Shown in pieces: positions 29,130 through 29,663 of a stretch of DNA of 64,000 bases; the first letter of the stretch is position 1; each line of letters opens with the position of its first letter. Location: the NCBI RefSeq assembly GCF_003790525.1, contig NZ_CP033636.1. One strand, written 5' to 3'. The position numbers and the translations under genes are program-made. The stretch comes from Escherichia coli. GTDB lineage: Bacteria > Pseudomonadota > Gammaproteobacteria > Enterobacterales > Enterobacteriaceae. The notes under the pieces are model-generated. The model did no database searches. It was not told the DNA's origin and saw nothing but the letters and a program-made list of their open reading frames with translations.

Positions 29130-29663
29130 ATGGTCAAGGTGATAAATATCAACGGGAATTTAGTTGAGTTACCTGAGCCCTCAGCAAAGTTATCCAAAGC
29201 GGAATCACCTGATGGTAGGTTCTCAAAACCTAAAAATAAGATCTCTAAAATACAGCGAGCTGAGCTGCGAATGAAATTTGGGGGGCGTTGTGCCTATTGT
29301 GGTTGCAAGCTTCCTGAAAAAGGGTGGCATGCCGATCATGTTGAGCCTGTTCGACGCGACTTTGAACTGGTGAGAGCCCCGGTCGGCAGCGGCGTAACTC
29401 ATGTTGCCCGAAGTACGGGTAAGGTTATGCACCCTGAACTGCATGCAATAGAAAACTTATTTCCATCATGCGCTCCCTGCAACCTTTTTAAAGGAGCTTT
29501 TAGTGTTGAAGGAATGAGAAATGAAATTACCAAACAGGTTGAACGGGCTCGCGCATATAGCGTGAATTTCCGTACCGCAGAACGTTTTGGTTTGCTTCAT
29601 ATTGTAGTAAAACCGGTCGTCTTCTGGTTTGAGCAGTATAACGAACAGAAACAAAACGAATAA
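29130..29663 (+). CDS. HNH endonuclease
   Basis: ORF 29097..29663; likely start at 29130 after aaaggcgg; HNH signature CAYCGC...WHADHVEPV and second zinc knuckle NLFPSCAPCN. Confidence 0.65.
   Translation: MVKVININGNLVELPEPSAKLSKAESPDGRFSKPKNKISKIQRAELRMKFGGRCAYCGCKLPEKGWHADHVEPVRRDFELVRAPVGSGVTHVARSTGKVMHPELHAIENLFPSCAPCNLFKGAFSVEGMRNEITKQVERARAYSVNFRTAERFGLLHIVVKPVVFWFEQYNEQKQNE

Follow-up and report, generated by a model that had tools for sequence, protein, structure and literature searches.

A predicted single-domain HNH nuclease of the IncHI2 plasmid backbone belongs to a family found as a solitary cassette in enterobacterial phages and conjugative plasmids

Results

The HNH gene sits in conserved IncHI2 backbone

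We analysed a 64,000-nucleotide stretch of Escherichia coli DNA (the window), in which a small HNH gene is closely flanked by genes without known function. The features of the window that bear on this gene are as follows.

About 4.7-5.8 kb: RepHI2, followed by three large Ig-like proteins (plasmid annotation)
About 13.8-37.6 kb, nearly all + strand: array of small genes with orphan methyltransferases (MTases), toxin-antitoxin genes and a DndC-like gene
28573..28884, + strand: upstream gene for a 103-aa hypothetical protein, an IncHI1/IncHI2-type backbone gene
28881..29069, + strand: upstream 62-aa ORF, overlapping ORF 28573 by 4 nt (ATGA)
29130..29663, + strand: HNH endonuclease CDS, 177 aa plus stop (WP_000241454.1; ORF list and RefSeq)
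29775..30386, + strand: downstream gene for a DUF6012 (PF19475) protein, HNH-adjacent only in IncHI1, IncHI2 and Pantoea backbones
30446..30461, + strand: terminator-like GC hairpin with a T-rich tail after DUF6012 (consensus scan)
48.6-58.8 kb, - strand: MobI/MobH/TraD transfer operon (plasmid annotation)

The 4 kb around the HNH gene are 100% identical to many complete IncHI2 plasmids. The region was matched in 1,028 PLSDB records, most of them at 95% identity or above (mostly 95-100%). These plasmids come chiefly from Escherichia, Salmonella and Enterobacter, and 938 of the records are typed conjugative. The protein encoded by ORF 29130-29663 is 100% identical to RefSeq WP_000241454.1, the product of an IncHI2 backbone gene, and in pEGY1-MCR-1 (IncHI2A, MOBH, MPF_F) the ORF carries the same accession with the annotation 'HNH endonuclease signature motif containing protein'. 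In the array, the HNH gene is preceded by two methyltransferases and a 794-aa DndC-like PAPS-reductase protein, and the plasmid annotation of its own stretch lists HNH, DUF6012, DUF957, DUF3085 and a hok toxin; no terminase or portal gene is listed in the annotated plasmid stretch. The HNH gene sits in conserved IncHI2 backbone and not in a variable island, so that the island setting proposed in an earlier, sequence-only reading of this DNA is not supported by the plasmid records.

The ORF list placed the start of the HNH gene at GTG 29097, whereas RefSeq begins the protein at ATG 29130. We favour ATG 29130 because the IncHI1 orthologue starts at the equivalent codon, only 30 nt past its upstream gene. 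The tight packing of the neighbours at 28573, 28881 and 29775 described by the sequence-only reading was confirmed, the first two overlapping by 4 nt and the third following the HNH gene after a 111-nt gap, as was the statement that these immediate neighbours are without known function. The hairpin at 30446-30461 is suggestive of a possible end of a transcription unit that contains the HNH gene; the number of sites in the promoter and terminator scan was not above the shuffled expectation. The consensus scan placed no terminator-like site in the gap between HNH and DUF6012, and one low-quality stem lies inside the HNH ORF (29283-29295).

The product is predicted to be an intact zinc-ribbon HNH nuclease

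The paired HNH motif noted from the sequence (C..C...H.DH and N....C..CN) was borne out, with C54/C57, D69-H70, N109 and C114/C117-N118 all intact. The first half reads GGRC54AYC57GCKLPEKGWH67AD69H70VEP and the second N109LFPSC114APC117N118LFK121. In an alignment of 70 diverse relatives, C54, Y56, C57, G58, P112, C114, C117 and K121 are invariant columns, and D69, H70, N109 and N118 are conserved in at least 90% of the sequences. The parts of the protein are placed on the window as follows.

29130..29237, + strand: N-terminal extension, aa 1-36, found only in 'long' plasmid-type members
29289..29339, + strand: first half of the HNH motif, C54-x2-C57 through H67-A-D69-H70, with invariant or near-invariant columns
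29349..29450, + strand: family-specific insertion of about 35 aa (aa 74-107), a predicted long beta-hairpin
29454..29492, + strand: second half of the HNH motif, N109, P112, C114-x2-C117, N118 and K121, with invariant or near-invariant columns
29496..29639, + strand: C-terminal helical region, aa 123-170, YSVNFRTAERFG...PVVFWFE, conserved and family-specific

The AlphaFold (AF2) model of the protein has a pLDDT of 91.4, and its beta-beta-alpha fold can be superposed on solved HNH domains. The N-terminal extension is predicted to form a small beta-hairpin (aa 2-14) followed by a linker of lower confidence (per-block pLDDT over residues 1-40, 89/78/58/78). The insertion is modelled with strands at 75-82 and 91-100, and its sequence differs between the long plasmid forms and the short phage and IncF forms. 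The C-terminal helical region may serve in DNA binding. No second domain besides HNH was detected by Pfam in the query or in the 70 relatives.

Profile and structure comparisons pointed to the same class of protein. The search returned 980 homologues (E down to 3e-116), and PHROG 2118, 'HNH endonuclease', matched at E 2e-55. Pfam HNH (PF01844) matched the single query at E=0.14-0.15 in two separate pieces (residues 54-76 and 105-122); the same model matched 10 of the 70 family members at E<=1e-3 and 44 of the 70 at E<=0.1. The weak and split score is explained by the modelled beta-hairpin, which separates the DH strand from the N...CxxCN helix. A single-sequence search of the PDB sequences gave nothing meaningful, and only the family profile retrieved the Gme HNH nickase 4H9D of Geobacter (E 3.5e-7); Foldseek on the predicted model matched predicted phage HNH proteins. 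The first half of the motif was aligned to the CxxC...DH of 4H9D and of IscB/Cas9-type HNH domains, and the second half to the N..P.C..CN.K of 4H9D, so that D69-H70, N109 and N118 fall on the corresponding 4H9D residues. C54 and C57 in the first half and C114 and C117 in the second are predicted zinc ligands, with H70 as the predicted general base and N118 as a predicted metal ligand. A chance ORF is ruled out by the homologues, the confident predicted fold and purifying selection. The HNH identity of the protein is near certain, and its product is, as judged from sequence, an intact single-domain zinc-ribbon HNH (beta-beta-alpha-metal) protein and a predicted nuclease.

Members of the family occur as lone cassettes in unrelated phages and plasmids

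A HMMER scan of 1.84 billion cluster representatives delimited a family of 1,428 clusters (50% identity) at E<=1e-3, 502 of them at E<=1e-10, nearly all single-domain and 120-200 aa long. The family is present in 2,705 PLSDB plasmid records and 177 phage records. Its short form, of about 140 aa and without the N-terminal extension, is found in phages, prophages and IncF plasmids. The long form (173-194 aa), with an N-terminal extension of about 36 aa, occurs in large plasmids and in a single element that bears an integrase. Its carriers include IncHI1 pHCM1 and a Pantoea IncHI1B plasmid (79% identity each). Among Klebsiella plasmids the value is 64% for one of K. michiganensis and 61% for those of IncHI1B/IncFIB type, and three metagenomic or assembled contigs have copies at 61-67%. 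Resistance and virulence plasmids of the IncHI and IncF groups and many enterobacterial phages share the family at 57-64% identity.

All phage and plasmid contexts of the homologues differ between lineages, which speaks for a solitary cassette. In P22-like phage the gene lies between Ea22 and EaA in the early-left accessory (ea) region, and Edwardsiella phage eiAU has it between the genes for DNA polymerase and helicase. Its neighbours in Sasha-like and Klebsiella siphoviruses are ParB-like and methyltransferase genes, and Bas77-type phages carry it upstream of their terminase genes. In the Bas77-type phages a classical HNH_3/AP2 homing-endonuclease gene is in some cases inserted alongside the homologue. 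IncF plasmids, including those of the Salmonella pSLT type, carry the short form within the tra operon, precisely at the junction of trbC and traN. In the F plasmid, trbC and traN overlap and there is no gene between them; the IncF insert has its own ribosome-binding site past the trbC stop and recreates the same ATGA stop/start overlap with traN. The junction is the signature of a self-contained cassette. Related genomes thus differ by presence or absence of the insert with clean junctions, F lacking the gene that pSLT-type and other IncF plasmids have; such polymorphism was not seen within IncHI2, where the HNH gene is near-universal. These data showed that members of the family occur singly, as a cassette, in many unrelated enterobacterial phages and conjugative plasmids.

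Neighbouring genes do not travel with the HNH gene

Thirteen proteins encoded around the HNH gene were compared by tblastn with five loci outside IncHI1 and IncHI2 that carry long-form homologues 61-67% identical to the window protein, namely three plasmid or prophage contigs and two Klebsiella plasmids. None of the neighbours was found near the HNH gene at these loci, within 6 kb or to the end of the contig, and only HNH is shared. ORF 28573 was found in 1,201 plasmids, in all but one at 60% identity or above, that is, in IncHI1/IncHI2-type plasmids. It was also considered as a phage-borne partner on the strength of a match to phrog_30913 (E 3e-38) and rejected, as tblastn found no phage record. 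For ORF 28881, tblastn gave no homologue in the IncHI1 or Pantoea plasmid, and there were no family matches. DUF6012 occurs in 2,229 plasmids; the HNH gene was beside it in none of the four contexts inspected outside IncHI1/IncHI2, which were Klebsiella pKP29, Yersinia pYR7, a Xanthomonas plasmid and a 37-kb O157 plasmid, where DUF6012 adjoins a type IA topoisomerase. The adjacent immunity or specificity partner that the sequence-only reading had suggested looking for was thus sought and not found, since the window neighbours do not travel with HNH outside IncHI1/IncHI2-type backbones.

The HNH gene is conserved, vertically inherited and dispensable

Between IncHI2 and IncHI1, the HNH protein has the highest amino-acid identity of the syntenic block, at 79%, compared with 75% for the DndC-like protein, 73% for DUF957, 69% for ORF28573, 60% for DUF6012 and 51% for DUF3085. 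Synonymous sites of the HNH gene are saturated in this comparison (pS 0.77, pN 0.15), and dN/dS was therefore taken from three closer plasmid pairs, where it was 0.17, 0.11 and 0.085. These substitution ratios indicate that the gene is under purifying selection. Its GC content follows the host replicon (0.45 in IncHI2, 0.54 in IncF), which argues for long residence in each replicon. The HNH gene is inherited vertically as an IncHI-type backbone gene. Losses do occur: in pEC-IMPQ-type IncHI2 plasmids, IS26 truncates the HNH gene to roughly its first 133 residues, DUF6012 is missing from its side and the segment next to it has been inverted; frameshifted copies are also found occasionally in IncHI2 plasmids. 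Plasmids with the IS26-truncated copy still circulate and are typed conjugative. The HNH gene is dispensable in nature.

Proposed role and competing explanations

The HNH protein is most likely not the effector of a multi-gene defence or restriction system. On balance we think it probable, by no wide measure, that it is an autonomous accessory nuclease of a selfish or competition type, working alone and nicking or cutting duplex DNA; the uncertainty of this explanation is carried by the biological role and not by the HNH identity. The protein would act without a fixed partner. Following established HNH chemistry, its two CxxC pairs would hold structural zinc, H70 would act as the general base that activates water, and D69 together with N118 would hold the catalytic divalent metal. 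By analogy with small phage [CxxC]2 HNH enzymes, a nick or break would be made in duplex DNA at short recognition sequences; ten such phage and prophage proteins are site- and strand-specific nickases with a specificity of 3-7 bp (PMC3592412). The gene would move among mobile elements as a free-standing cassette between conserved genes, and its carrier may be favoured through damage to related DNA without the gene, in the style of homing or marker exclusion.

Several observations weigh against a purely selfish nuclease. The core of about 140 aa is without a recognisable AP2-, NUMOD- or IENR1-type module, which makes a long-site homing specificity doubtful, as extended DNA-binding modules of these kinds are a feature of classical free-standing HNH homing endonucleases. 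Among the roles listed by the sequence-only reading, 'homing-type' is the best fit to the scattered, cassette-like distribution, but the absence of such a module tells against it. The gene is also near-universal and vertical in IncHI2 and better conserved than its neighbours, and a useful plasmid function fits these facts equally well or better. In addition, the repeated sites in tra operons and near terminase could mean processing of the element's own DNA. No functional study of this HNH gene or family was found in the literature searched.

The main rival to the autonomous accessory nuclease, rather unlikely in our estimate, is a helper nickase of low specificity that serves the element's own DNA in phage packaging or in plasmid transfer, establishment or recombinational repair, and that would be kept for its direct benefit to the carrier. 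It would account for the short-form homologues translationally coupled to traN inside the F-type tra operon, for those directly upstream of terminase in some siphoviruses or between DNA polymerase and helicase in eiAU, and for the strong purifying selection and top conservation within the IncHI block. Judged by sequence and fold, the nearest relatives with a solved structure are 4H9D and the GVE2 HNH, phage or prophage enzymes whose genes adjoin terminase genes (PMC3592412). Against such a helper, F conjugates without any gene at the trbC-traN junction, IncHI2 plasmids with the IS26-truncated copy circulate and are typed conjugative, P22-like phages keep the gene in the dispensable ea region, and the nearest transfer operon in the window is about 19 kb away from the HNH gene. 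The phages with a terminase-proximal copy carry Terminase_3 and Phage_portal_3, which are not of the HK97 type; HNH-dependent packaging machines have been described for HK97, with a different terminase and portal type. A second rival, improbable in our estimate, is an establishment or anti-defence nuclease, made soon after entry into a new host, that would attack resident competitors or host defence loci. The nearly unidirectional array from 13.8 to 37.6 kb, with its orphan MTases, toxin-antitoxin genes and DndC-like gene, has a content typical of plasmid leading regions (PMC11541004), and the Klebsiella long-form plasmid homologues also lie within small-gene arrays with a cytosine methyltransferase. 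However, HNH nucleases are not mentioned among the leading-region anti-defence families in that paper ('HNH' has 0 occurrences in PMC11541004), the MobI-MobH-TraD operon separates the presumed oriT from the small-gene array, the literature searched did not give the direction in which transfer proceeds from the IncHI oriT, and profile searches of the neighbours recognised no known anti-defence gene beside HNH. We also regard it as improbable that the family goes beyond a selfish passenger and is a conjugation-linked weapon or establishment factor, made during transfer or entry from its place in the IncF tra operon or in the one-directional IncHI array. On this improbable reading, such a factor would nick the DNA of resident competitors (related plasmids, prophages) or stimulate recombination that aids the incoming plasmid, and the N-terminal extension, which only the large-plasmid forms have, would be an adaptation to the conjugation-linked role.

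A defence effector, whether Septu/PtuB-like, retron-associated or part of a novel small system with ORF 28573, ORF 28881 or DUF6012, or else a restriction endonuclease paired with an MTase, is very unlikely. The tight packing with ORFs of unknown function and a possible single transcription unit ending after DUF6012 are consistent with it. PADLOC and NCBIfam, however, gave PtuB and retron-HNH matches at the level of the motif only, with 21.6 bits for TIGR02646 (retron-associated HNH) against a cut-off of 52.15 and 17.1 bits for PtuB NF041761 against 150, so that the comparison with defence-system HNH families ended far below threshold (17-21 bits versus 52 and 150). No PtuA-like ATPase or reverse transcriptase is present near HNH in the plasmid annotation, Rfam gave no match to a retron or other ncRNA at the gathering threshold between 27 and 32 kb, and the neighbours and HNH do not co-occur, in either direction, outside IncHI1/IncHI2-type backbones. 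The earlier suggestion of an effector in a small defence module is unsupported on these grounds. The same holds for a restriction role, as the nearest MTase (21203-22453) lies 6.7 kb upstream with eight annotated genes in between, and neither Pfam nor the AF2 model revealed a modified-DNA reader domain fused to HNH in the 177-aa protein. There is likewise no toxin-type delivery domain, the N-terminal extension being only 36 aa, and DUF6012 is not co-inherited outside IncHI1/IncHI2-type backbones. Lambda Ea31, a phage PtuB-like HNH protein, was considered as the founding member of PHROG 2118 and rejected, since BLASTP gave only 23% identity over the motif (pairwise E 3e-4); it belongs to a different, PtuB-like family. 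The HNH gene falls outside the HNH families of the PtuB/retron, McrA and toxin-immunity types, and the locus should be counted neither as a defence island nor as a toxin-immunity pair. A decaying homing-endonuclease remnant that has lost its activity is scarcely credible. Loss is tolerated, as the IS26-truncated or frameshifted copies in some IncHI2 plasmids show, and the single-sequence Pfam score is weak; the latter is accounted for by the hairpin insertion. In the window copy every catalytic and zinc-binding residue is intact and conserved, dN/dS is 0.09-0.17, the gene is the most conserved of its block between IncHI1 and IncHI2, and the fold is predicted with high confidence, so that the degenerate remnant raised by the sequence-only reading is excluded for this copy.

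Discussion

Over a thousand sequenced IncHI2 plasmids already have this gene annotated as coding for an HNH-motif protein, and its fold and motif are textbook, with nothing unexpected in the anatomy of the protein. Its interest is modest and lies in an uncharacterised family of small HNH proteins, common to IncHI plasmids, IncF plasmids and phages, that is under purifying selection. If the HNH protein does affect plasmid competition, establishment or transfer, this would bear on the spread of mcr-1 and carbapenemase IncHI2 plasmids, and if such an effect were shown, the protein might provide a new small nickase for DNA tools.

Compared with known systems, the window protein differs from the Septu PtuB and retron TIGR02646 effectors in scoring below their cut-offs, in having no adjacent PtuA, RT or ncRNA, and in its C-terminal half. 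The HNH domains of Cas9/IscB and of McrA-type proteins sit in large multidomain proteins, for which RNA or a modified-DNA reader serves as the guide, whereas the window HNH is a free protein of 177 aa with 13-21% identity to them. With free-standing homing endonucleases (T4 Mob, I-HmuI-like, HNH_3+AP2) the family shares the HNH catalytic fold, the position as a solitary cassette between conserved genes and a patchiness that is seen between F and pSLT-type tra operons and in P22-like phages. In contrast to these enzymes, it is without a recognisable extended DNA-binding module, and it is fixed and vertically inherited in IncHI2 and IncHI1 instead of patchy.

The closest known kind is the small phage and prophage zinc-ribbon HNH nickases. 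N.phiGamma, Gme HNH 4H9D, GVE2 HNH 5H0O and HK97 gp74 resemble the window protein in size (about 100-180 aa), in having a single HNH domain, in the CxxC...DH...N...CxxCN...K signature and in carriage by mobile elements. Unlike the terminase-associated HNH proteins of the HK97 gp74 type, the window gene has no terminase beside it, and only some of its phage relatives are terminase-proximal. The family is set apart from the [CxxC]2 nickases by two features of its own: a beta-hairpin of about 35 aa between the halves of the motif and a conserved C-terminal helical tail of about 50 aa.

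The HNH gene region of the IncHI2 plasmid backbone

Around the 177-aa HNH gene (29130-29663, + strand), the window holds the following features.

Features of the window
1118-3574, + strand: gene for an Ig-like-domain protein of ~800 aa
4682-5770: RepHI2 replication gene
7768-10188, - strand: gene for an Ig-like-domain protein of ~800 aa
13782-16199, + strand: gene for an Ig-like-domain protein of ~800 aa
25637-28021, + strand: orphan DndC-like/PAPS-reductase family protein (794 aa), matched by PADLOC and NCBIfam
28271-28510, + strand: 79-aa ORF upstream of the cluster
30446-30461, both strands: terminator-like hairpin GCCCGG-TAAG-CCGGGC with a T-rich tail
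33487-33675, + strand: paralogue of the 79-aa ORF, 5 kb downstream, 51% identity

Of the ~35 genes annotated at ~13800-37650, almost every one is small, functionally uncharacterised and encoded on the + strand; the array points toward the MobI/MobH/TraD operon, which lies on the - strand at 48.6-58.8 kb. Among its members are orphan methyltransferases, a RelE/ParE and a hok toxin, DUF957 and DUF3085, and the array may be an 'establishment/leading' region of IncHI plasmids. The RepHI2 gene is flanked by the three Ig-like-domain protein genes.

The 794-aa protein matched PADLOC DndC with an E value of 4e-38 and scored 118 bits against NCBIfam DndC, below the cut-off of 290 bits. No DndA, DndB, DndD or DndE was annotated near its gene, and its IncHI1 counterpart is conserved at 75% identity. 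This protein may act on its own in the IncHI backbone as an enzyme that modifies DNA or nucleotides. The 79-aa ORF and its paralogue, both of which also occur in IncHI1 and a Pantoea plasmid, make up a small, functionally uncharacterised family that arose by duplication. The ORF at 28573-28884 (+ strand) matched phrog_30913 (E 3e-38), but a tblastn search of 50,697 phage records did not detect it, and its occurrence is confined to IncHI-type plasmids; the source of phrog_30913 is probably a plasmid-like sequence deposited as phage. Past the DUF6012 stop by 60 nt, the hairpin with its perfect 6-bp GC stem is the sole candidate terminator outside coding sequence at 28.0-31.5 kb.

HNH homologues in other plasmids and in phages

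The comparison covered the following loci.

Features of the compared loci
L025 (pEC-IMPQ, IncHI2) 4558-5723: region of the IS26-truncated HNH gene, cut at the equivalent of window ~29527
L011 6958-7414 and L026-L028 4963-5420: short-form HNH insert at the trbC-traN junction
L012 6601-7417: insert at the trbC-traN junction
L013 3014-3017: trbC/traN junction for comparison
L029-L031 (Bas77-like phage contigs) 6195-6710: classical free-standing HNH_3 homing-endonuclease gene

One sublineage of IncHI2 plasmids from Enterobacter has an HNH gene truncated by IS26, with a product of 149 aa; this gene has lost its DUF6012 neighbour, and the segment downstream of it is inverted. As these plasmids still circulate, both genes are dispensable for them.

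Short-form HNH homologues are inserted precisely where trbC stops and traN starts in IncF tra operons, including those of pSLT-type Salmonella virulence plasmids. In F, trbC and traN share an ATGA stop/start overlap, and the HNH insert restores the same overlap with traN. Because L012 holds an additional 123-aa ORF besides the HNH homologue at this site, the trbC-traN junction is an insertion hot spot.

In the Bas77-like contigs, the HNH_3 gene (two of the three copies show a faint AP2 domain) lies immediately upstream of the large terminase gene and one gene downstream of the gene homologous to the window's HNH. Two different HNH genes therefore stand side by side in these phages.
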